This document shows positions 2,736 to 25,738 of a DNA stretch of 64,000 nucleotides, in pieces (position 1 is the first letter of the stretch; each line of letters starts with the position of its first letter). The DNA is from an uncultured Bacteroidales bacterium (lineage in GTDB: Bacteria; Bacteroidota; Bacteroidia; Bacteroidales; Paludibacteraceae): the NCBI GenBank assembly GCA_946535435.1, contig CAMNDM010000010.1, positions 23,559-87,558 of the forward strand. Reading direction: 5' to 3'. Position numbers and translations under genes: made by a program. The notes under the pieces are model-generated. The model did no database searches and was not told the origin of the DNA. It was given only the letters and a program-made list of their open reading frames with translations.

Positions 2736-2759
2736 CTTATTGTTAATCTTTTATTAATG

Positions 2760-2831
2760 TAGTCCATGGCGGAATCGAACCGCCCTTGCAAGAATGAAAA
2801 TCTTGAGTACTAACCGATATACGAATGGACC
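2760..2831 (-). tRNA. tRNA-Glu (anticodon UUC), copy 1
   Basis: The 72-nt reverse complement is GGTCCATTCGTATATCGGTTAGTACTCAAGATTTTCATTCTTGCAAGGGCGGTTCGATTCCGCCATGGACTA. The acceptor stem is GGTCCAT/ATGGACT, the anticodon stem CAAGA/TCTTG, the loop TTTTCAT, and the T-arm GGTTCGATTCC. Confidence 0.9.
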
Positions 2832-2869
2832 AGCCTTGAAAATTTATTTTCTTTATTTGTCAGGGACTG

Positions 2870-2877
2870 CAAAATTA
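2870..2877 (-). promoter_or_regulatory. putative -7 box (TAnnTTTG) for tRNA-Glu copy 1
   Basis: Plus strand caaaatta is TAATTTTG on the minus strand, 39 nt upstream of the tRNA 5' end. Confidence 0.5.
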
Positions 2878-2953
2878 AGCAACTTTTGTGCCCTTTCAAA
2901 TTCTTTCATTAAAAAAGATAACTCCTTTTGAGAATTATCCTTTCTAATTGTTG

Positions 2954-3025
2954 TAGTCCATGGCGGAATCGAACCGCCCTTGCAAGAATGAAAATCTTGA
3001 GTACTAACCGATATACGAATGGACC
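2954..3025 (-). tRNA. tRNA-Glu (anticodon UUC), copy 2
   Basis: 72 nt identical to copy 1. The immediate 5' flank (cagccttgaaa on the plus strand) is shared too. Confidence 0.9.
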
Positions 3026-16673: not shown

Positions 16674-17684
16674 ATGAAACGGATTCTAGTAATGCGGCTT
16701 TCGGCTATGGGCGATGTGGCGATGACGGTTCCCGTCTTGGCCAGTCTGCTACAGCAACATCCCGATGTGGAAGTGACGCTGTTGAGCACACCCCGCTTCG
16801 AACCGATGTTTGCCGGCATCGACCGTCTCCGTTTTGTGGGTGTTGACACGAAAAAGACCTATAAGGGCTTTGGTGGCATCTTCAAACTGTTCCGTTTCCT
16901 GCGTAAAAACTATACGTTCGACCAGATGGTCGACTTGCACGATGTGCTCCGTAGCAAGGTGCTCCGCAAACTATACCGGCTGACGGGCGTCCCTGTTTCG
17001 GTTATCGATAAGGGGCGTGCCGAGAAAAAGGCCTTGGTAAAGGAAGGCGGTGACGGGAAAAGACAACTGAAGTCGTCGGTCGACCGTTATTGCGAGGCTT
17101 TCGCCGCGGCTGGCTATCGTGTGGAGGTCAATTTTCAGGGCCTCTTCCCTAAAAATGAGGTTTTCGAACTTCCTTTCGAGAAAAAAGGTACTTGGGTTGG
17201 TGTGGCTCCATTCGCACAACACCAGGGTAAGATTTATCCGGTTGAGAAGATGGAGCAGGTCGTCCGCCAGTTGGCTGCTCTGCCCGGTGTGGAGGTACTG
17301 CTGTTTGGCGGTGGACCGAAGGAAAAAGCCGTTCTCGAAGGTTGGGAGAAAGCTATCCCATCTACCATTTCATTGGCTGGAAAGTTTCCGCTAAGTACCG
17401 AACTGCATTTGTTGAATGCTTGCAAGGTGGTGGTGAGTATGGATTCTGCCAATATGCATTTGGCATCGCTGGTAAACACACCGGTGGTGTGCGTATGGGG
17501 CGCTACTCATCCGTATGCGGGTTTTAATGGTTTCGGACAGAACTTGGCGAACGCTGTGCAGATTGATATGGATTGCCGTCCTTGCTCTATTTATGGTAAC
17601 AAACCGTGTAAAAAGGGCGACTATCCCTGTATGAATAGTATTCCTCCTGAGGTGGTGGTCGAAAAAGTGAGAAATCTGCTTTAA
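16674..17684 (+). CDS. glycosyltransferase family 9 (heptosyltransferase-like)
   Basis: 336-aa ORF with the N-terminal GT9 signature ILVMRLSAMGDVAMTVP and SMDSANMHLAS. Confidence 0.85.
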   Translation: MKRILVMRLSAMGDVAMTVPVLASLLQQHPDVEVTLLSTPRFEPMFAGIDRLRFVGVDTKKTYKGFGGIFKLFRFLRKNYTFDQMVDLHDVLRSKVLRKLYRLTGVPVSVIDKGRAEKKALVKEGGDGKRQLKSSVDRYCEAFAAAGYRVEVNFQGLFPKNEVFELPFEKKGTWVGVAPFAQHQGKIYPVEKMEQVVRQLAALPGVEVLLFGGGPKEKAVLEGWEKAIPSTISLAGKFPLSTELHLLNACKVVVSMDSANMHLASLVNTPVVCVWGATHPYAGFNGFGQNLANAVQIDMDCRPCSIYGNKPCKKGDYPCMNSIPPEVVVEKVRNLL

Positions 17685-17712
17685 GTAAAATACACAAAAT
17701 GTAAAATAAAGC

Positions 17713-17758
17713 AACAGCGGTAAGTGGTGTTTCGCTTACTGCTGTTGTTGTTTTGTTT
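17713..17758 (+). terminator. rho-independent terminator after the GT9 gene
   Basis: 14-bp stem aacagcggtaagtg/cgcttactgctgtt (two G-T pairs) followed by a T-rich tract. Confidence 0.7.
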
Positions 17759-17872
17759 GCGGACCTATCTTTGCGTAATGGAAATCTCGTCGGTTAGTTT
17801 TGTTGCCCGAGAAAATTTGTTGATGTGTAATTTTTCTGCCTTTTTTCTGTTTTTTTGTTCTCCTATTTTTTT

Positions 17873-17880
17873 TATATTTG
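17873..17880 (+). promoter_or_regulatory. putative -7 box (TAnnTTTG) for duplicated module copy 1
   Basis: TATATTTG is preceded by long T-tracts and lies 76 nt upstream of the ATG at 17956. The same octamer precedes copy 2. Confidence 0.55.
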
Positions 17881-17955
17881 CGAATGTAATAGGGTTATAG
17901 CTTTGTTTTGGCTTTGCTTATTATGAAGAAAAATATTAATGTAATCTAACTGGTT

Positions 17956-18429
17956 ATGAAGTTAAAAAAATGTTTGGCGGGCATATCCCTGGCGATAGCG
18001 GGGAGTGTTCCTGTAGTGGCGGGTAATACTTACGTCACTATTCAAAAGAACGATGGAACAAAGAGTTCGTTTCTGTTGTCTGCTGTTCCGAAAATCACAC
18101 ACACTGCCGATAGCTTGAAGGTAGAGGGAGATGCAAGTGCCTCTTTCCTTTTGTCGGATGTCGACTTTTTCAAATTTACAGAGTCTGACCTCACATCTGT
18201 TCCTACACTTAAAGGCGATGAGCTTCGCGTTGTCTATCTCGACAACCAGCATGTGAGGGTCGAGGGACTGGCTGCAGGCTCACAACTGTCGCTTTGTTCG
18301 GTGTCGGGTGCGGTGTTGAGCCAGAAGCAGGCTTCTGCCGATGGCTTTGCCGAGTTCTCGCTGCCACAGGCAAAGGGCGTGTACATCTTGAAGACAGACA
18401 AACAGATTGTTAAACTAGTGAAGAAGTAA
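17956..18429 (+). CDS. small secreted protein with T9SS-type C-terminal sorting domain (paralog A1)
   Basis: 157 aa with signal peptide MKLKKCLAGISLAIAGSVPVVAG. The C-terminal ~65 aa (VRVEGLAAGSQLSLCSVSGAVL...AKGVYILKTDKQIVKLVKK) resemble a type-A Por/T9SS CTD. It differs from A2 by 10 of 157 residues (counted by eye). Confidence 0.75.
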   Translation: MKLKKCLAGISLAIAGSVPVVAGNTYVTIQKNDGTKSSFLLSAVPKITHTADSLKVEGDASASFLLSDVDFFKFTESDLTSVPTLKGDELRVVYLDNQHVRVEGLAAGSQLSLCSVSGAVLSQKQASADGFAEFSLPQAKGVYILKTDKQIVKLVKK

Positions 18430-18433
18430 GCTT

Positions 18434-20398
18434 ATGAAGAAACTATTACTACTGACAGCCGGTGCTTTTGCGACAGTTTTGTCGTCGGCTATGATTATGA
18501 AAATGTATTATCCCGATGGTACAACGCAGAGGTTCAACATCGACGATGTGAACAAGGTCTCTTATGAGGGGAATGCGTCAAGCAGAAAGATGGTTGTGGA
18601 ATACGCCAGCCATACTGACACTCTGCCGGTTGTTGCCGACTCGGTTGTGTTCACGAACGACGAAATTCATACGGCCAACGGGCACGAATACGTCGATTTG
18701 GGCCTTTCCTATTATTGGGCTACCAACAATGTCGGTGCTTCCGATTATACTCTCGGTGGAAAATTCGCATGGGCTGAAATTGAACCTTCTGACGATTTGG
18801 AGTATAGATGGAAAAGCTCTTTCGACGGTAACAAGTTAAATGAACAAAGCGGAAAGGGATTTGTTATTCAACATAGACATAAATATACGGAAAGAAGCAT
18901 TGGCTGCGTCTTTTCGGATTTCGATATCAGGTACACCAATGGTGGCCTGCTGAAAAGCCTGTTGGCTGAAGACGATGCCGCTTTTGTAAAATGGGGACCT
19001 ATGTGGTCGACTCCGTCCGCTGACGCATGGCAGGAGTTGCTAGACAACTGTACATTCAAGTACTACGAAGACTATCAGGGACAGAGTGGTTATCTTGTTA
19101 CGAGTAAAGTGCCTGGCTTTGAAGGCCAATCAGTGTTTTTTCCTGTTGAATTAGGTATGGTCCAAGACAATAGTGGTGAGTACCATCCGTATGAACACAG
19201 TATATATTGGACTAATACGCTCGAACCGTCTGCCGATTATTATGGAATTTATTCCTATGGAGTCTGTTTCCCGACTCCCGATTCCAAGTTTTTCGGTAGC
19301 AGCCTTCCTAATACAATGTGGTCGTTATTCTCCAAAAATATGGCAGCCCACGTCCGCCCGGTCATTCATAAGCGCATGGCCGATAAATACGGTTTGAAGT
19401 CGGCGGGTAGCGTACAAAAATACCAGGTTGTTTACTTGAATTCCGATAAAAGCAGCATCATGGAAGTGGAAGAGGTTGCCGAAGGTAAGGCAGCTATAGG
19501 AAAGGGCGATTTTATGCAGAAGATAGTAAAACCGCAGGAGAATTTGGTCTTCAACCGTTGGTCTGCCGATTTGTCGTCTGTAGAAAGAAGCCTCTCTGTT
19601 TATCCAGTCTTTGTAGTAGATACGGCTAACACTTACTATAAAGTGCGTATCCTGTGTCCTGATACAATGATATGGTATGACCAGGCGGGAAAAGAGAACC
19701 GTACGCTTTTACCTGGCAGCCCTTACGACTCTGTTTATGTGCGTGAGGGAGAAGATGTCCCTTCCGATTGGTTGGAAAAAGTAAGGTACAGATGGGCTAG
19801 AGGGTATAATGTCAAGCATGATTTGAAACTTACCAACCTGCACGCCAATCTCGACATCACACTCGACCGTGTGGTTTTCAAGGACTATAGTGAGCCAAAA
19901 GGCGATCGCCGTTATGTAGACCTCGGCCTCTCTGTCAACTGGGCTTCCGGTAATCTGTCGGACGATGTGAATGTTTCGAAAGACTCCTTGAAGAAATGTC
20001 TGTGGACCGACGATATAGCTACAAAACAGTGGGGGGACGATTGGCGCCTGCCAACAAAGGAAGAGTTCCAAGAATTGATAGATAACTGTTATATTGATAG
20101 GGTAAATGGTGTCTTCAACGAAGATGGTGTGATTGACTACTCTGTTGGTGTGGCCGGATATCTGTTTACCAGCAAGGTGCCTGGCTATGAAGGCCGGTCT
20201 ATCTTCCTTCCAGCAAGGGAGATGATTGTCAACTGTGGACCGGCTCCAGAACGCCTTGAACTGAGTGGTGTTTATCTGACCTCTTCAAAAGGGGAAGATG
20301 GCGAGAGCTTTTATTTGTTTGACGGTGAAGGTGTGTCAATTCTCGATTATTACGATATTAGGGGCTGGGGCTTCATCCGTGCCGTAACTGCAAAGTAA
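18434..20398 (+). CDS. secreted multidomain lectin-like protein (paralog B1) with two DUF1566/FISUMP-like domains and a Listeria-Bacteroides-repeat-like segment
   Basis: 654 aa, starting 4 nt after the A1 stop, with a signal peptide. It has two copies of the motif series YVDLGLS..WA..N.G / W..P..E..QEL.DNC / GYL.TSKVPG.EG.S.F.P / ..RAV. The middle segment LVFNRWSADL...VYPVF is repeat-like. Confidence 0.75.
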   Translation: MKKLLLLTAGAFATVLSSAMIMKMYYPDGTTQRFNIDDVNKVSYEGNASSRKMVVEYASHTDTLPVVADSVVFTNDEIHTANGHEYVDLGLSYYWATNNVGASDYTLGGKFAWAEIEPSDDLEYRWKSSFDGNKLNEQSGKGFVIQHRHKYTERSIGCVFSDFDIRYTNGGLLKSLLAEDDAAFVKWGPMWSTPSADAWQELLDNCTFKYYEDYQGQSGYLVTSKVPGFEGQSVFFPVELGMVQDNSGEYHPYEHSIYWTNTLEPSADYYGIYSYGVCFPTPDSKFFGSSLPNTMWSLFSKNMAAHVRPVIHKRMADKYGLKSAGSVQKYQVVYLNSDKSSIMEVEEVAEGKAAIGKGDFMQKIVKPQENLVFNRWSADLSSVERSLSVYPVFVVDTANTYYKVRILCPDTMIWYDQAGKENRTLLPGSPYDSVYVREGEDVPSDWLEKVRYRWARGYNVKHDLKLTNLHANLDITLDRVVFKDYSEPKGDRRYVDLGLSVNWASGNLSDDVNVSKDSLKKCLWTDDIATKQWGDDWRLPTKEEFQELIDNCYIDRVNGVFNEDGVIDYSVGVAGYLFTSKVPGYEGRSIFLPAREMIVNCGPAPERLELSGVYLTSSKGEDGESFYLFDGEGVSILDYYDIRGWGFIRAVTAK

Positions 20399-20422
20399 TT
20401 ATATTTGTTATAACGATGGAAA

Positions 20423-20458
20423 GCCTCTGGGGAGGGACTTCCCCGGTGGCTTTTTTTT
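20423..20458 (+). terminator. rho-independent terminator after B1
   Basis: Stem gcctctgggga/tccccggtggc (one mismatch, one G-T pair) followed by eight T. Confidence 0.7.
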
Positions 20459-20494
20459 GTGAAGTCGAAATGCATGTCGTCCGATATTAAATTA

Positions 20495-20502
20495 TATATT
20501 TG
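20495..20502 (+). promoter_or_regulatory. putative -7 box (TAnnTTTG) for the orphan island
   Basis: TATATTTG lies 28 nt upstream of the ATG at 20530. The TTG of the box is the ORF-track start at 20500. Confidence 0.55.
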
Positions 20503-20529
20503 TATAAAACGAAAATTGAGGTCGAATTC

Positions 20530-21267
20530 ATGGATAAACTAAAAAAACTGCTGTCGATTGAACCAGAGGCGTTTGAAAACTATAAACCTGGAGAGGTCGG
20601 AAATTATAAAACGCAGTTCGATGAAATAGCCAAGTTACTTATAGAGGACTACGCAATCGTAAAAGGCCAAGACTGCTATTTCTTTACCGAAATCGAGTTC
20701 TATTTTTATGCCAAGAATCATCAAGATATTATTACCCATCCCCGTCGTTGTCTTGCCATGCAATGGTACATCAATAACTTCGGAGACATTGATTTGACGT
20801 TCGAGAGTCATATAGAGATGGTTGAAGTCGAAAATTCGCAGAAGAAAGTGGTCTGCAAACCAGTTCTTGACGATAAATGCTACTTTGGAGGCATCTTAAT
20901 TCGTGGTTTGAAGAATGTGCACACGGGAAAGAACCTTGAAGGACCATGGGCTTGTTCCGAACTTTACCGACTGCATTCTGTCGATGGACTCACTGGTGAA
21001 TTCCCGAAATTGATTAAAATTAGTGATTTGGAGTTAAATGCCCCCCATATGGCAGAGAATGCTGTTAACCGCTACAACCTATTAAATAACAAAACATCCG
21101 AAAACAAAGTGGACTATATTCTTTCTGGCTACAAAAATGGAGCAGAATTGAGTAAGGATTCGCTTGTCAACAAGTTTGACGAGTTTTTGCCTGCTGCTTA
21201 TAGGTATTATGCGAAAGATTGGAAGGTCTTGGGCTTGAAATACCCATATTGTCGAAATAAAGAATAA
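20530..21267 (+). CDS. orphan protein with an AAG/Mpg-like (alkylpurine DNA glycosylase family) motif series
   Basis: 245 aa from the ATG at 20530. It shows, in order, TEIEFY (compare ETEAY), DIITH (compare D.AAH), GGILIRGL (compare vLiRAlEP), EGPWACSELYRL (compare GPgkLcqAL) and YRYY near the C-terminus (compare RF[YW]). The coding call is more secure than the function call. Confidence 0.55.
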   Translation: MDKLKKLLSIEPEAFENYKPGEVGNYKTQFDEIAKLLIEDYAIVKGQDCYFFTEIEFYFYAKNHQDIITHPRRCLAMQWYINNFGDIDLTFESHIEMVEVENSQKKVVCKPVLDDKCYFGGILIRGLKNVHTGKNLEGPWACSELYRLHSVDGLTGEFPKLIKISDLELNAPHMAENAVNRYNLLNNKTSENKVDYILSGYKNGAELSKDSLVNKFDEFLPAAYRYYAKDWKVLGLKYPYCRNKE

Positions 21268-21302
21268 AAGTAGTTATATGGTAAACGTATATTATTTACA
21301 GT
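21267..21302 (+). repeat. 36-bp perfect direct repeat, copy 1
   Basis: aaagtagttatatggtaaacgtatattatttacagt is identical to 21333-21368. Confidence 0.95.
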
Positions 21303-21310
21303 TATATTTG
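21303..21310 (+). promoter_or_regulatory. putative -7 box (TAnnTTTG) inside the 30-bp spacer between the direct repeats
   Basis: TATATTTG lies 34 nt upstream of the ATG at 21344. Confidence 0.45.
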
Positions 21311-21332
21311 CAGTGTGTTAAACAAAAACGAT

Positions 21333-21368
21333 AAAGTAGTTATATGGTAAACGTATATTATTTACAGT
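21333..21368 (+). repeat. 36-bp perfect direct repeat, copy 2 (covers the start of the GIY-YIG-like ORF)
   Basis: Identical to 21267-21302. Confidence 0.95.
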
Positions 21369-21892
21369 GGTTTGGCCCTTTTCCCTCTGTTGATGAATTG
21401 AAAAAGTGGCGGCAAGAAGAAAACGAAGAATGTTATTTGTATTTGTTGCAAGGAAAGAAAAAGTGGCATCAGAAATATACGTATTATTGTGGACAAACCT
21501 TTAGACAGAATGTAGAGGATCGTCTTTCTAATTCTAATCATCACATAAGGGAACTGCAGGAAAGATCAGATTCCTTAAGAATATGGGTCGGTTCTTTTGG
21601 TAATATAAAAAATCCAACAAAGGATGATGTGAACTTGTGAGAAAAGATGTTAACATCAGAGATGATGCAAATTGAAGTCGACGATGCATACACGGCAAAC
21701 AAAACAAATTTAAAGTCTCCGAATGATGATGTGATTATTGTAAATGAATGGTTTGATTTAGAAATGTCTCACCGTGAAAGGACTTCGAAGATATCTCCTG
21801 CTAATCGTGTGCCTGATGTTATTTCTTATTGGTCGAAAACAAAAGAGGTTTTTGTGGCAAAACATCTCAAAAAACTTGGTCCTATGAAGTAA
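21344..21892 (+). pseudogene. GIY-YIG-like orphan gene interrupted by a single in-frame TGA (21638-21640)
   Basis: ORFs 21344-21640 and 21647-21892 share a reading frame and are separated only by TGA GAA AAG. The motifs YLYLL, YYCGQT and VEDRLSNSNHH lie before the stop, and EKMLTSEMM...ANKTN lies after it. Confidence 0.45.
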
Positions 21893-21995
21893 ACATCAAC
21901 TTTTATAGGATTTTGACGATGTGTTATTCCATGTGAGATCAATCCGCTTTACCATAAATATTTACCATGTTCTGTGTGATTTATAAGTTTTATAA

Positions 21996-22169
21996 ATGAG
22001 AGAACTCCCGTATTTGATATATGCTTTAAATAATGAAGGAAGGTTAGTCAATATTATGGATCCTTCTGTTGAGAATGGAGACAACTGCAAGTGCTTTTGT
22101 CCTCATTGCAAGACTAAATTATGTGCTAAAAATAAAGGAACAAAAAACACATCAAAAATAGAAAAATGA
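21996..22169 (+). pseudogene. relic of a CoiA-like N-terminal zinc-ribbon region (57-codon ORF, below the ORF-track cut-off)
   Basis: My own translation is MRELPYLIYALNNEGRLVNIMDPSVENGDNCKCFCPHCKTKLCAKNKGTKNTSKIEK*. The pattern YAL..eG.lv.i ... CP.C...L.aK.G matches CoiA-family N-termini, but the ORF stops before the expected HFAH and nuclease core. Confidence 0.35.
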
Positions 22170-22176
22170 TGAACCA

Positions 22177-22458
22177 ATGAATCTTGTTGCGGTCATGTTT
22201 AAATATGCGTCCGACCTGGAGGTTGGACCCCGTGCCGGATGGCCGCCTCACCAGTCTGAAGCCGAAAGTCTTGAGATTATCCGAACTATATTCCATAACG
22301 ATTCTTCCTGGGCTATTGAGTCGAAGGAGGTTGGAGAGGCTGTTGCTGCTACGGACTATGGCCCTTCGTGTAACTGTAAACTGCCGTCACGGCCGAATGA
22401 ACCGATGCCCGGATTTTGGGTGGCTAAACCGTTCTGGAACAAAGGCATTTTCTTATAG
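22177..22458 (+). pseudogene. decayed GNAT acetyltransferase copy (paralog of 25223-25738)
   Basis: The translation ...KYASDLEVGPRAGWPPHQSEAESLEIIRTIFHNDSSWAIE... aligns with residues ~9-100 of the intact GNAT. It has an internal N-terminal deletion, loses homology after WNKGI, and an overlapping second frame (22184-22552) is present. Confidence 0.8.
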
Positions 22459-22623
22459 AACCAGAACCTCCCGTTTGTTAACATACTACGGTAAAGTCTG
22501 CTCGGCATGTTGTTTATCTATAGAAATTTATGATTGTTTTCTGAAATATTAACCGAGTAAGAAAAGTTGTGCTCGGCAAGAGAATATTCTTGAATTGTAA
22601 AATGTGTTGATAAAAATTATCTG

Positions 22624-22631
22624 TATATTTG
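22624..22631 (+). promoter_or_regulatory. putative -7 box (TAnnTTTG) for duplicated module copy 2
   Basis: TATATTTG lies 66 nt upstream of the ATG at 22697. Confidence 0.55.
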
Positions 22632-22696
22632 TTGTTGTAATAGGATTTTAGCTTTCGCTTATTATGAAGAAAAGTATTAATGTAATCTAACTGATT

Positions 22697-23170
22697 ATGA
22701 ATTTAAAAAAATGTTTGATGGGCATATCCCTGGCGATAGCCGGGAGTGTTCCGGTAGTGGCGGGTAATGCTTACGTCACGATTCAAAAGAACGATGGAAC
22801 AAAGAGTTCGTTTCTGTTGTCTGCTGTTCCGAAAATCACACACACTGCCGACAGCCTGAAAGTAGAGGGGGATGCTAGTGCCTCTTTCCCTTTGTCGGAT
22901 GTCGACTTCTTTAACTTTACAGAGTCGGACCTCACGTCTGTTCCAACTGTAAAAAGTGACGAACTGCGTGTCGTCTATCTCGACAACCGGCACGTGAGGG
23001 TCGAGGGACTGGCTACAGGCTCACAACTGTCGCTTTGCTCGGTGTCGGGTGCCGTGTTAAGCCAGAAACAGGCTTCTGCCGATGGCTTTGCCGAACTCTC
23101 GCTGCCACAGGCAAAGGGTGTGTACATCTTGAAGACAGACAAACAGATTGTTAAACTAGTGAAGAAGTAA
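22697..23170 (+). CDS. small secreted protein with T9SS-type C-terminal sorting domain (paralog A2)
   Basis: 157 aa, differing from A1 at 10 positions. Confidence 0.75.
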   Translation: MNLKKCLMGISLAIAGSVPVVAGNAYVTIQKNDGTKSSFLLSAVPKITHTADSLKVEGDASASFPLSDVDFFNFTESDLTSVPTVKSDELRVVYLDNRHVRVEGLATGSQLSLCSVSGAVLSQKQASADGFAELSLPQAKGVYILKTDKQIVKLVKK

Positions 23171-23174
23171 GCTT

Positions 23175-25142
23175 ATGAAGAAACTATTATTACTGACAGC
23201 TACTGCCTTTGCGGCCGCATTGTCGTCGGCCGTGGTCATGAAAATGTATTATCCCGATGGCTCGACCCAGCGCTTTAACGTCAGCGATGTCGACAAGGTC
23301 TCTTACCAGGGAAGTGCGTCAAGCAGAAAGATTGTTGTGGAATACGCAAGCCAGGCCGACACGCTGCCGGCTGTCGCCGACTCGGTTGTTTTCTTGAACG
23401 ACGAGATTCATACAGCCAACGGACACGAGTACGTCGATTTGGGACTTTCCTACCTTTGGGCTACAAATAACATCGGATCTACCGATTCTTCGCTTGGCGG
23501 TCATTACGCATGGGCCGAAACCGATCCTGTTACCGATTTTTCTTTCCGTTTTGATGACCCCTTTAGAGGATCTGGTGTGCCCGATTCTTTCAACGTGTTA
23601 AGTGGAAAGGGATTATACCTTGATCGGTTGAATAAGTACTCTTATTATGGTGGAGGCTGCGTTTACGACATATTCAGTAGCAGATACAACCGGCAGGATG
23701 GGTTGATGGACTTGTTACCGAGCGACGATGCCGCTTATGTGAAATGGGGCCCAATGTGGTCGACTCCGTCCAAAGAGGCTTGGGATGAATTGATAGAGAA
23801 TTGTACGTTCAAGTTTGTTGAAAACTACCGTGGAATAAGCGGCTATGTGCTTACCAGTACTGTCGCAGGTTTCGAAGATAAGTCAATCTTCTTACCAGTT
23901 CATTACATCTCTATGTTTGAGCAAAGCGTGTATTGGACCAGCTCAAGGGAATCTGTTTTAGGTAAAGATTATCAAGATAATATCTGGGGTATCTGTTTCC
24001 CAATCCCTCAGTATGATGATGATTATCAAATGGATCAAAAACCGAAGGAAATGAGCTCTTTGTTCTCAAGGAATATGGTCGCTCAAATCCGTCCTGTCAT
24101 CCGCAAACGTGCTGTCGAAAAGTTCGGGTTGAAATCGGCTGGCGCCAACAATTCTGACTCTTACAAGGTCGTCTATCTGAATACCGATAAAATCAGCATT
24201 CTGAAAGTGGAGGATGTGCCCGAAGGAAAGGCTGCTAAGGGAATCGGCGACTTGGTCGGTGAAATTCAGAAACCACAGGAAAATTTGCTCTTCAATGGTT
24301 GGTCGGAGGATTTAACGGCTGTCGACAGACATCTTACGGTGTATCCGGTTTTTGTTGTCGACTCGCTCCATACCTATTATAAAGTACGTGTTATTTGCCC
24401 TGACTCTATGCCTGTTTACGGAGATTTCGATAAGATGTATGGTGATGTCCATTTGAAGTACATTTTGCCTCCTGCTACCGCATACGATTCTATTTATGTG
24501 CGTGAGGGTGAGGATGTGCCAACCGATTGGTTGGGAAAAAATTTGTACAGATGGAAGGACGGATATCACGCCAAACATGGGTTGAAACTGACCGACCTGC
24601 ATGCCGATGTTGATATTACATTCGACCGTGTCTTTATCCGTGACTATAGCGAGCAAAAGGGAGACCACCGCTTTGTTGACCTCGGTCTTTCTGTCAACTG
24701 GGCTTCTGAAAATTTGAGCCAAAGCGTTCTTGACCTTTCGAGCGATTCGCTCTATAATTGGTCTTATAACGCTGACGTGGTGACTAAGGTTTGGGGGGCA
24801 GATTGGCGTCTGCCATCAAAAGAAGAGTTCCAAGAACTGCTCGATAATTGTTATGTCGATAAAGTGACCAGTGTCTTCAATGAAGAGGGAGAACTAGTGC
24901 GTGAAGAGGGATACCTGTTTACCAGTAAGGTGCCAGGCTATGAAGGTAGGTCTATTTTCTTACCTGCAAGGCAGATTCATATGGATTGTGGACCGGAGCC
25001 TTCTTCTCTTGATTTGTACGGAGAATATCCGACTTCAGACAGAGAGAATCTGAAAACCTATGTGTTCACTACAAATGGCTTGTATTTGGAACACTTTACT
25101 TTGTCGTCTTCCGGACGTGTCCGGGCGGTGACGGCAAAATAA
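23175..25142 (+). CDS. secreted multidomain lectin-like protein (paralog B2)
   Basis: 655 aa with the same architecture as B1. Conserved blocks alternate with strongly divergent blocks. Confidence 0.75.
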   Translation: MKKLLLLTATAFAAALSSAVVMKMYYPDGSTQRFNVSDVDKVSYQGSASSRKIVVEYASQADTLPAVADSVVFLNDEIHTANGHEYVDLGLSYLWATNNIGSTDSSLGGHYAWAETDPVTDFSFRFDDPFRGSGVPDSFNVLSGKGLYLDRLNKYSYYGGGCVYDIFSSRYNRQDGLMDLLPSDDAAYVKWGPMWSTPSKEAWDELIENCTFKFVENYRGISGYVLTSTVAGFEDKSIFLPVHYISMFEQSVYWTSSRESVLGKDYQDNIWGICFPIPQYDDDYQMDQKPKEMSSLFSRNMVAQIRPVIRKRAVEKFGLKSAGANNSDSYKVVYLNTDKISILKVEDVPEGKAAKGIGDLVGEIQKPQENLLFNGWSEDLTAVDRHLTVYPVFVVDSLHTYYKVRVICPDSMPVYGDFDKMYGDVHLKYILPPATAYDSIYVREGEDVPTDWLGKNLYRWKDGYHAKHGLKLTDLHADVDITFDRVFIRDYSEQKGDHRFVDLGLSVNWASENLSQSVLDLSSDSLYNWSYNADVVTKVWGADWRLPSKEEFQELLDNCYVDKVTSVFNEEGELVREEGYLFTSKVPGYEGRSIFLPARQIHMDCGPEPSSLDLYGEYPTSDRENLKTYVFTTNGLYLEHFTLSSSGRVRAVTAK

Positions 25143-25163
25143 ACCGATTGAATGCACGTAAAA

Positions 25164-25195
25164 AGCCACTGGGTTTACTCCTAGTGGCTTTTTTT
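25164..25195 (+). terminator. rho-independent terminator after B2
   Basis: Stem agccact/agtggct followed by seven T. It is unrelated in sequence to the B1 terminator. Confidence 0.65.
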
Positions 25196-25222
25196 GTAAC
25201 TTAGTCCGGAAAACGAAAGTAA

Positions 25223-25738
25223 ATGGAAACATCAAGAATTTTGTTGCGGCCTTGGCGCGATAGCGATGCCGCAGCATTATATAAGTATGCGACCGACCCG
25301 GAAGTAGGGCCACGGGCAGGTTGGCCACCGCACCAGTCTGAGGCCGAAAGCCTGGAAATAATCCGAACTATATTCCATAACGATTCTACCTGGGCTATTG
25401 AGTTGAAAGAGGCAGGCGAGGCGATAGGAGCTATGGGCTATGGCTCGTCTTGTGAATGTAAACTGCCAGCCCGCCCCGACGAGCCGACGGTAGGGTATTG
25501 GGTGGGGAAGCCCTATTGGAACAAGGGTATTTGCACCGAGGCTCTAGCTTTGCTGATTGAACACATCCGCAGTACAACGGACATCAAGTCGTTAATAAGC
25601 GGACATTTTATAGATAATCCGGCTTCAGGACGGGTGATGGAAAAGTGCGGATTTGTGGACACTGGCGAAACGGCTGAAGACGACAGCCTGTATATGGGTG
25701 CCGGAAAGCCAATCAGGGTGTTGAGGATGGAGTTGTAA
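25223..25738 (+). CDS. GNAT family N-acetyltransferase
   Basis: 171-aa ORF with a RimJ/RimL-like layout (ILLRPWRDSDAAALYKYATDPEV..., YWVGKPYWNKGICTEALALLIEH). Confidence 0.85.
   Translation: METSRILLRPWRDSDAAALYKYATDPEVGPRAGWPPHQSEAESLEIIRTIFHNDSTWAIELKEAGEAIGAMGYGSSCECKLPARPDEPTVGYWVGKPYWNKGICTEALALLIEHIRSTTDIKSLISGHFIDNPASGRVMEKCGFVDTGETAEDDSLYMGAGKPIRVLRMEL

Follow-up and report, generated by a model that had tools for sequence, protein, structure and literature searches.

The question raised by this locus is whether a short AT-rich segment with two genes for apparent DNA enzymes represents a dedicated DNA-targeting system or an assembly of separate genes. The locus lies in a 64,000-nucleotide stretch (the window) of contig CAMNDM010000010.1 from an uncultured Bacteroidales bacterium of the Paludibacteraceae (assembly GCA_946535435.1), in which an island of 1.7 kb (positions 20459-22176) is located between the two tandem copies of a duplicated surface-protein module (A-B). 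In the initial annotation, made from the sequence alone, the first open reading frame (ORF) of the island, ORF245, was described as AAG/Mpg-like, the second, ORF182, as a GIY-YIG-like gene split by one stop codon, and the third, ORF57, as a CoiA-like relic, and a glycosylase-plus-nuclease defence module was proposed.

The explanation preferred here, which we hold with roughly even confidence, is that the island is decaying defence-island-type cargo with two separate accessory genes in a rumen Bacteroidales lineage, and not a dedicated glycosylase-plus-nuclease system. A small piece of defence-island-type DNA would have become lodged between the two module copies. ORF245 would be a solitary copy of a fast-evolving module that is elsewhere fused to or paired with a PAD_porph-type enzyme (agmatine/peptidyl-arginine deiminase-like), and in intact relatives it is probably co-transcribed with ORF182 from the TAnnTTTG box at 20495. 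In the window, the predicted nuclease is dead owing to a nonsense codon just before a catalytic-type Glu; a private rearrangement of 66 bp lies upstream of this codon, and ORF245 has drifted at conserved sites. Of the proposed module, the defence-gene neighbourhoods stood; the glycosylase did not, the usual partner of ORF245 is a deiminase, and the cassette is degenerate here.

Relatives and partners of ORF245

Homologues of ORF245 were found in Prevotella, Segatella, Bacteroides, Muribaculaceae and other Bacteroidales (433 at E<=1e-3), mostly with a length of about 225 aa and none with a Pfam domain. A near-identical protein is annotated in a metagenome-assembled genome (MAG) of the Paludibacteraceae. 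The family of ORF182 comprises 104 representative clusters, and the genes, taken initially for orphans, are unannotated instead. That they might be spurious ORFs could be rejected because both families are large and have confident structure models.

The genomic context of ORF245 was surveyed at 80 species-level loci. A PAD_porph protein or domain of approximately 295 aa was fused in frame to the ORF245 homologue, or adjoined it, in 61-65 of them, and was convergent in a few. The partner matched PAD_porph (PF04371) with an E-value of 7.5e-25 and kept the C-terminal GGALHC motif, which in guanidino-modifying enzymes typically contains the catalytic Cys. It thus resembles the agmatine and Porphyromonas-type peptidyl-arginine deiminases of this family, but differs from them in its length and in being tied to an N-terminal module in defence-rich regions. 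No PAD_porph gene was present in the window or its close relatives. Fused (about 510 aa) or adjacent, the combination is widespread and unannotated (L013-L092, e.g. L017:7932-9473 and L020:7932-9474), and in Prevotella it often adjoins mnmE. At L016:3397-6500, a sharp compositional break separates the ORF245-PAD region (33-34% GC) from the adjoining mnmE (60% GC).

In 35 of 43 locus comparisons, the ORF245 part was less conserved than the PAD part. At 64 of 66 loci, the GC content of the ORF245 gene was also below that of its far flanks, with medians of 35.7% and 46.0%. Immediate neighbours included PDDEXK_4 (PADLOC PDC-S26), DUF3800 (PDC-S51), REase-ARP, Fic, AbiEii/AbiEi and WYL regulators, and in four Segatella/Prevotella loci a PD-T4-3 homologue (PADLOC E-value 3.2e-43) occupied the PAD slot directly after ORF245. 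The defence-gene neighbourhoods anticipated initially were found for both families, the surroundings of the homologues being rich in AbiE, PD-T4-3/CMoRE, PDC-S26, PDC-S51 and type I restriction-modification (R-M) genes in a qualitative near-versus-far PADLOC comparison. A literature search for PAD_porph in a defence setting yielded nothing relevant, and we know of no precedent for a deiminase effector in anti-phage defence.

Tests of the glycosylase assignment

The identification of ORF245 as AAG/Mpg was not supported by Pfam, NCBIfam, a PDB profile search, HHalign or Foldseek, all of which were negative. PF02245 was not matched at E<=1 by ORF245 or any of 45 family members in Pfam, and no NCBIfam model matched ORF245. 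A search of all PDB sequences with the ORF245 profile hidden Markov model (HMM) did not recover AAG. The AlphaFold 2 (AF2) model of ORF245 (predicted local distance difference test, pLDDT, 81.8; predicted template modelling score, pTM, 0.82) gave no fold match by Foldseek against the PDB, and no AAG structure was among the matches. UDG-like or PabI-like similarity was not detected in ORF245 or the other island proteins.

HHalign comparison of the ORF245 alignment with human AAG, the sequence of which was confirmed against 1F4R, gave a Prob of 0.5%. When the 108-sequence family was compared with an 18-sequence AAG alignment, consisting of eight plasmid-borne bacterial AAG genes and vertebrate AAGs, Prob was 0.2-0.45% and E 0.13-0.25. 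In the near-global alignment (Prob 0.45%, E 0.13) the short motifs EIEFY/ETEAY, H…HPR/H…T-RN, GGILIR/VLIRA and GPxaC/GPgkL were collinear. The strongly conserved polar residues of the family are E56, H64, D66, H70, R72, N82, K110, R125, C142 and R147; of these, the invariant E56, H64/H70 and R125 came to lie opposite E125, H136 and R182 of AAG, in this non-significant forced alignment only. Given this collinearity at a Prob of that order, the resemblance is real as a pattern and unproven as homology. ORF245 is similar to AAG/Mpg (PF02245; PDB 1F4R) in length and, in the forced alignment, compatible with it in the order of secondary-structure elements, but carries a family-specific β-hairpin insertion of about 25 residues and is associated with a deiminase.

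The ORF182 family

A full HMMER scan placed most members of the 104 ORF182 clusters at 175-195 aa; in some proteins of about 330 aa the domain is C-terminal. Residues W9, G11, P12, Y33, Y48, G50, R60, I80, W81, E100, N119, W136 and D158 are invariant or nearly so. Among 52 sequences, Y33, G50 and N119 were invariant, and Y48, R60 and E100 were found in at least 90%. In the resulting pattern, Y…YxG…R…E…N, the residues are ordered and spaced as in the active site of GIY-YIG enzymes, with motif spacings of 15/10/40/19; those of I-TevI are 11/8/48/15.

The AF2 model of ORF182 (pLDDT 95.3, pTM 0.90) contains a β-β-α-α-β-α core in this order (strands E32-38 and E45-51, helices H57-61 and H69-72, strand E79-85, helix H93-111). 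In Foldseek searches against BFVD the top matches were T4-type Seg proteins annotated as 'homing endonuclease', 'GIY-YIG_SegABCDEFG' and 'SegD', with probabilities of 0.90-0.98 over about 95 aligned columns and E-values of 0.03-0.3. The model and the conserved residues indicate that ORF182 likely has a GIY-YIG-type fold, from which we infer nuclease activity. The GIY-YIG-like label of the initial annotation is thus backed by the invariant residues and the BFVD matches, but not by any profile or PDB match. The HMM search of PDB sequences was negative, and HHalign against I-TevI (sequence verified) gave an E-value of 0.19. PADLOC-DB 2.0 gave marginal matches to the two halves of the window ORF182 (E 0.015-0.038) and no match to ORF245, to ten further ORF182 members or to one ORF245-PAD fusion.

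Genomic context of ORF182

Contexts of ORF182 were collected from 118 loci by look-ups and a gapped degenerate DNA pattern scan of metagenomes. In the commonest one (17 of the 118), ORF182 is placed in line within an EcoR124-like type I R-M operon, after hsdR and before hsdM, with a median gap of 2 nt between hsdR and ORF182; the identities of HsdM and HsdR were confirmed against the PDB. A gene for a conserved 313-aa protein followed ORF182 in 11 of these 17 loci. Examples are L111, L116, L130, L177, L214, L218 and L222, with 10 more metagenome loci. Other neighbourhoods contained a methyltransferase (MTase) gene or ORF245, and a lone copy was located between rpsP and an OPT transporter gene.

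The ORF182 pattern was absent from 2.9 million IMG/VR viral contigs. Phage collections gave one match each for ORF182 (in INPHARED) and ORF245, both in unannotated gut contigs labelled 'Bacteriophage sp.', and a plasmid collection gave none for either. A prophage or plasmid origin was therefore considered unsupported.

Co-occurrence of the two families

The two families rarely go together. The pair was carried by 1 of the 80 ORF245 loci and by 3 of the 118 ORF182 loci, the remaining 115 metagenome loci being without ORF245. Adjacency of homologues, suggested initially as a check of the proposed module, was thus seen in L016, L126 and L160, but not as a rule.

The few joint loci differ in layout. 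At L016 the homology of the ORF245-PAD region to intact loci extends as far as PAD residue 137 and is then interrupted by a 658-bp insert, which carries a convergent ORF182 homologue alone and replaces PAD residues 138-299; homology restarts just before mnmE. At L126 and L160, ORF182 precedes and overlaps ORF245 by 4 bp and 11 bp, respectively, and the PAD gene is convergent. In L165 and L173 the same ORF182 clade adjoins PAD-type genes and ORF245 is missing. Among L016, L126 and L160, identity is 64-86% for the ORF182 proteins and 32-39% for their ORF245 neighbours; the PAD genes are 70% identical. In intact relatives of the window lineage, the stop codon of the ORF245-type gene (ORF246) and the start codon of ORF182 are 10 bp apart, and both genes point in the same direction.

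Since the pair is rare and ORF182 is equally tightly placed beside unrelated defence genes, we consider it more probable that the families reside independently in defence islands, and that ORF182 tends to insert into ORF245/PAD loci, than that they form one obligate system. The association recurs more often than we would expect by chance, which keeps a functional triad under consideration.

Allelic variation and decay

Three alleles were found at the same chromosomal position. In type (i), represented by L003, ORF246 and ORF182 are intact, and ORF57 and the remnant of a GNAT gene are present. The intact 182-aa allele of ORF182 (P0121) is 99% identical to that of the window, has TGC (Cys) at the position of the TGA, and occurs in at least 14 contigs from many samples. 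Type (ii), represented by L230, comprises 22 contigs including a Paludibacteraceae MAG and has the layout A-B-ORF245-A-B-GNAT. ORF182, ORF57 and most of the GNAT remnant are missing from it, and ORF245 is intact, with residues 1-228 identical to type (i). Part of the duplicated module is lacking as well, so that a deletion of about 1.2 kb is the simplest reading of this allele. Type (iii), the window itself, has TGA in place of TGC in ORF182, a private insertion of 66 bp, and an ORF245 with 14 amino-acid replacements of its own. Within one population, ORF182 was thus lost on two occasions, through a nonsense codon and through a deletion, and ORF245 persists without either partner.

The in-frame TGA was rejected as a case of recoding or of an alternative code because relatives carry TGC at this position and the flanking genes use TGA as stop. 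A direct count between the window and the intact allele of ORF182 gave 3 synonymous and 2 non-synonymous codons. Among the private changes in ORF245, G86D, F146Y and A151V affect sites conserved in the family, and the ratio of non-synonymous to synonymous polymorphism (pN/pS) was 0.42 for ORF245 versus 0.11 for B1.

The 66-bp rearrangement was private to the MAG of the window and one JGI contig, and was absent from all other relatives. Its perfect 36-bp duplication yields an 18-codon upstream ORF (uORF) that copies the start of ORF182. No other copy of the 30-bp filler was found in the window, and no match to it in the metagenome contigs. At 21303-21310, the filler contains a second copy of TATATTTG, which may act as a new promoter immediately before the knocked-out ORF182.

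No close strain had an empty junction, a comparison that the initial annotation had suggested. Conservation of the segment at this position in all related genomes, noted at the outset as a result that would speak against the proposed module, was seen in near-identical strains only, and even these differ in having ORF182 intact, inactivated or deleted. In L090, the next-closest genome that was available, the flanking proteins have 72-88% identity; the A/B module and the island are absent, and a divergent ORF245-PAD pair (33-40% identity) stands right after the Na/Pi cotransporter gene. It follows that this part of the chromosome is a variable region. In L090:6030-16282, from a Prevotellaceae-labelled MAG (RUG12386), the ORF245-PAD pair and six other genes lie between the Na/Pi cotransporter and GNAT flanks. 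Along window positions 16674-25738, identity to L003 was 95% for the GT9 glycosyltransferase, about 99% for A1/B1, 96.6% for ORF245, 99% for ORF182, 93.5% for B2 and 91.7% for GNAT; this patchy divergence suggests recombination between strains across the region.

Evaluation of alternative explanations

Several results weigh against the reading of the island as decaying cargo with a nuclease gene and a separate ORF245. The assignment of ORF182 to GIY-YIG is not statistically secure: no GIY-YIG Pfam family was matched at E<=1 by any of 52 members, the ORF182 family matched none of the PHROG families, HHalign against a LEM-3-type GIY-YIG alignment brought the motifs into line with an E-value of 0.14, and Foldseek of the model against the PDB returned no GIY-YIG structure. 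In PADLOC, one of the 52 members matched PDC-S14 (5.2e-06) and all others remained at >=0.004. The defence role is argued from guilt by association, with a near-versus-far comparison that is qualitative. The TGA and the 66-bp insertion were found in just two or three assemblies, possibly from one sample. Finally, the adjacency of ORF182 to ORF245/PAD in at least four architectures exceeds simple hotspot sharing and favours a functional link.

That link would be accounted for if the genes formed one system, with ORF245 as a fast-evolving sensor or specificity module and interchangeable effectors, usually the PAD-type deiminase and sometimes a GIY-YIG nuclease; the window lineage would then be a nuclease-effector variant that is now inactivated. 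The co-directional pair with its short spacer in intact relatives and the overlapping genes of L126 and L160 with convergent PAD agree with this, as do the occurrence of one ORF182 clade beside strongly diverged ORF245 genes and better conserved PAD genes, its position next to PAD-type genes in L165 and L173, the weaker conservation of the ORF245 part, and the replacement of PAD by PD-T4-3, a different GIY-YIG enzyme, in the Segatella/Prevotella loci. However, most members of either family occur without the other, orientation varies (convergent in L016 and Segatella, co-directional elsewhere), and the truncated PAD remnant of L016 is an insertion scar and no clean effector swap. PD-T4-3 functions without a second gene (PMC12923530), 22 contigs with a deletion of ORF182 retain an intact ORF245, and ORF182 is embedded just as tightly beside hsdR. 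We consider a single system of this kind doubtful. Its extension, in which ORF245, the PAD_porph-type deiminase and the ORF182 nuclease together constitute one undescribed modular conflict system of Bacteroidales, appears improbable. Here the diversifying ORF245 may recognise a target, e.g. a hypermodified phage base, and hand it to the deiminase, the nuclease or both; ORF245 might itself flip bases as a very distant relative of AAG, and the window lineage would be a nuclease-only variant in the process of loss. An account of ORF182 as a selfish, homing-type free-standing endonuclease gene that spreads into dispensable loci without benefit for the host, with ORF245 as a landing site, is likewise unlikely. 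It draws on the structural matches to phage Seg-type free-standing homing endonucleases, on the presence/absence polymorphism of ORF182 alone (the 658-bp cassette of L016, the lone copy between rpsP and OPT, and the population of the window), and on the two losses of ORF182 in this lineage. Yet the gene is nearly missing from the viral collections and missing from the plasmids, no intron or intein context was seen, hsdR/hsdM, MTase, ORF245 and rpsP neighbourhoods are all used so that there is no common target gene, and the insertion in L016 destroys its host gene, which homing elements normally avoid. The plain alternative of the initial annotation, a dedicated DNA-repair cassette of an AAG-type alkylpurine glycosylase and an incision nuclease, was already disfavoured and is very improbable. 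The collinear near-global alignment and the compatible secondary-structure order are in its favour, but the alignment is not significant, PF02245 and AAG structures were not found by the family and model searches, and the genes are accessory, low in GC, patchily distributed among defence genes, associated with a deiminase and subject to loss or inactivation in a single population, unlike housekeeping repair genes.

Comparison with known systems

By analogy, ORF182 may work most like small single-gene or operon-embedded restriction nucleases, and by the tests run it is a member of none of them. PD-T4-3 is CMoRE, a single-gene GIY-YIG type IV restriction enzyme for DNA with 5-hydroxymethylcytosine (5hmC) or its glucosylated form (ghmC) (PMC12923530). 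ORF182 is likewise a small gene of defence islands with a predicted GIY-YIG-type catalytic core, but it has no PD-T4-3 profile match and lacks the GIYxY motif; its 182 aa are predicted to form one compact domain, and a distinct domain for the sensing of modifications is lacking. TgvAB of Vibrio cholerae VPI-2 is a second, complementary restriction activity embedded in a type I R-M cluster (PMC11411939), a situation comparable, in placement only, to that of the ORF182 homologues between hsdR and hsdM. There is no sequence relation to TgvAB/GmrSD, and the window is without any R-M system.

SegA-G of T4-like phages are the best structural match (BFVD up to 0.98) and share with ORF182 the solo presence/absence pattern. 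The E-values of these matches are high, however, ORF182 lacks a Seg-type C-terminal DNA-binding region, and its family belongs to Bacteroidales chromosomes, with next to no members in the viral collections. Glycosylase-based defence, in which bases are excised from modified or unmethylated invader DNA, is known from Brig1 (PMC11078745) and R.PabI-type enzymes (PMC10273834). These served as the conceptual model of the glycosylase proposal, an analogy without support for the island proteins.

New in this survey are two uncharacterised families of gut and rumen Bacteroidales that have neither a Pfam model nor a PADLOC family, the ORF245-deiminase architecture, the placement of ORF182 between hsdR and hsdM, and the three-allele decay series. 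If the deiminase-linked module were an anti-phage or conflict system, it would introduce a new enzymatic logic into bacterial immunity; if ORF182 were a restriction-like nuclease, small single-gene GIY-YIG defence enzymes would extend beyond CMoRE. The series of intact, nonsense and deleted alleles is a clean natural example of rapid gene turnover.

Position, boundaries and composition of the island

The gene order at the locus is GT9 glycosyltransferase, A1 (157 aa), B1 (654 aa), island, decayed GNAT remnant, A2, B2 and intact GNAT. Coordinates of the features are given in Table 1. The three ORFs with the single in-frame stop, the two boundaries and the AT-rich character were all as first described. 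With a GC content of 35.6%, compared with 46.1% for the whole window, the island is the lowest-GC 1718-bp stretch in all 64 kb; 0.08% of the 1718-bp windows are equally low, and all of these overlap it. The island is compositionally foreign accessory DNA.

Table 1. Features of the island and its borders (positions within the window).
Feature	Position	Strand	Remarks
Intrinsic terminator of B1	20423..20458	+	Stem 20427-20446 plus T-run to 20458; left boundary of the island
TATATTTG, match to -7 promoter element	20495..20502	+	28 nt upstream of the ORF245 ATG; putative promoter, from the known consensus
ORF245 (245 aa)	20530..21267	+	Bacteroidales-only family without Pfam model; PAD_porph-type partner missing here
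Private 66-bp rearrangement	21267..21368	+	Perfect 36-bp duplication (21267-21302, 21333-21368) around 30-bp filler (21303-21332)
ORF182 pseudogene, GIY-YIG-like small nuclease gene (predicted)	21344..21892	+	In-frame TGA 21638-21640 replaces Cys99, one codon before Glu100
ORF57 (57 aa), Cys-rich (CxC…CxxC), zinc-ribbon-like N-terminal stub	21996..22169	+	Stop codon about 10 nt short of the island's right boundary
Decayed GNAT copy of module copy 1	22177..22458	+	Right boundary of the island; weak Acetyltransf_3 match

On the left side, the stop codon of B1 at 20398 is followed by the hairpin terminator. B2 ends with the same stop and hairpin, and the divergence between copy 1 and copy 2 starts right after the T-run. 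On the right side, homology to the intact GNAT gene restarts at about 22179, corresponding to GNAT nt +16, with a 24-nt deletion; the remnant at 22200-22450 is 77% identical to 25282-25532. The separate -7 box claimed for the island is present. TAnnTTTG is the Bacteroidetes -7 promoter element, and the TATATTTG octamer is over-represented in the window (9 copies versus 2.25 expected), with further copies upstream of A1 (17873) and A2 (22624).

In agreement with the first description, no integrase, transposase or nearby tRNA gene was found at the island, the only tRNAs being 17 kb away, and neither direct nor inverted repeats of more than 8 nt flank it. These results gave no support to a site-specific mobile element (integron cassette, insertion sequence or integrative island), in which att sites, terminal repeats or a target-site duplication would be expected. 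Far from the island, a tandem pair of tRNA-Glu(TTC) genes occupies 2759-3025 of the minus strand.

ORF57 gave no match to a CoiA profile in Pfam, as would have been expected of a CoiA-like relic, and just a sub-threshold match to DUF7828 (E 0.0084, 16.2 bits, cutoff 25.7). Its sequence was identical in every relative carrying it. Since its stop codon stands so close to the right edge, the island has the appearance of a piece of some larger foreign segment, joined by illegitimate recombination. A piece of the GNAT remnant (window 22356-22536) was inverted at L009:1789-1969, which is either a real rearrangement or an assembly chimera.

The A-B copies (17865-20284 and 22616-24996) are mosaic, with about 87-92% identity over A and the 5' end of B and 68-81% beyond. 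At locus L231, the A-B copies are arranged in reverse order around ORF245. Both observations suggest that unequal recombination or gene conversion continues within the array.

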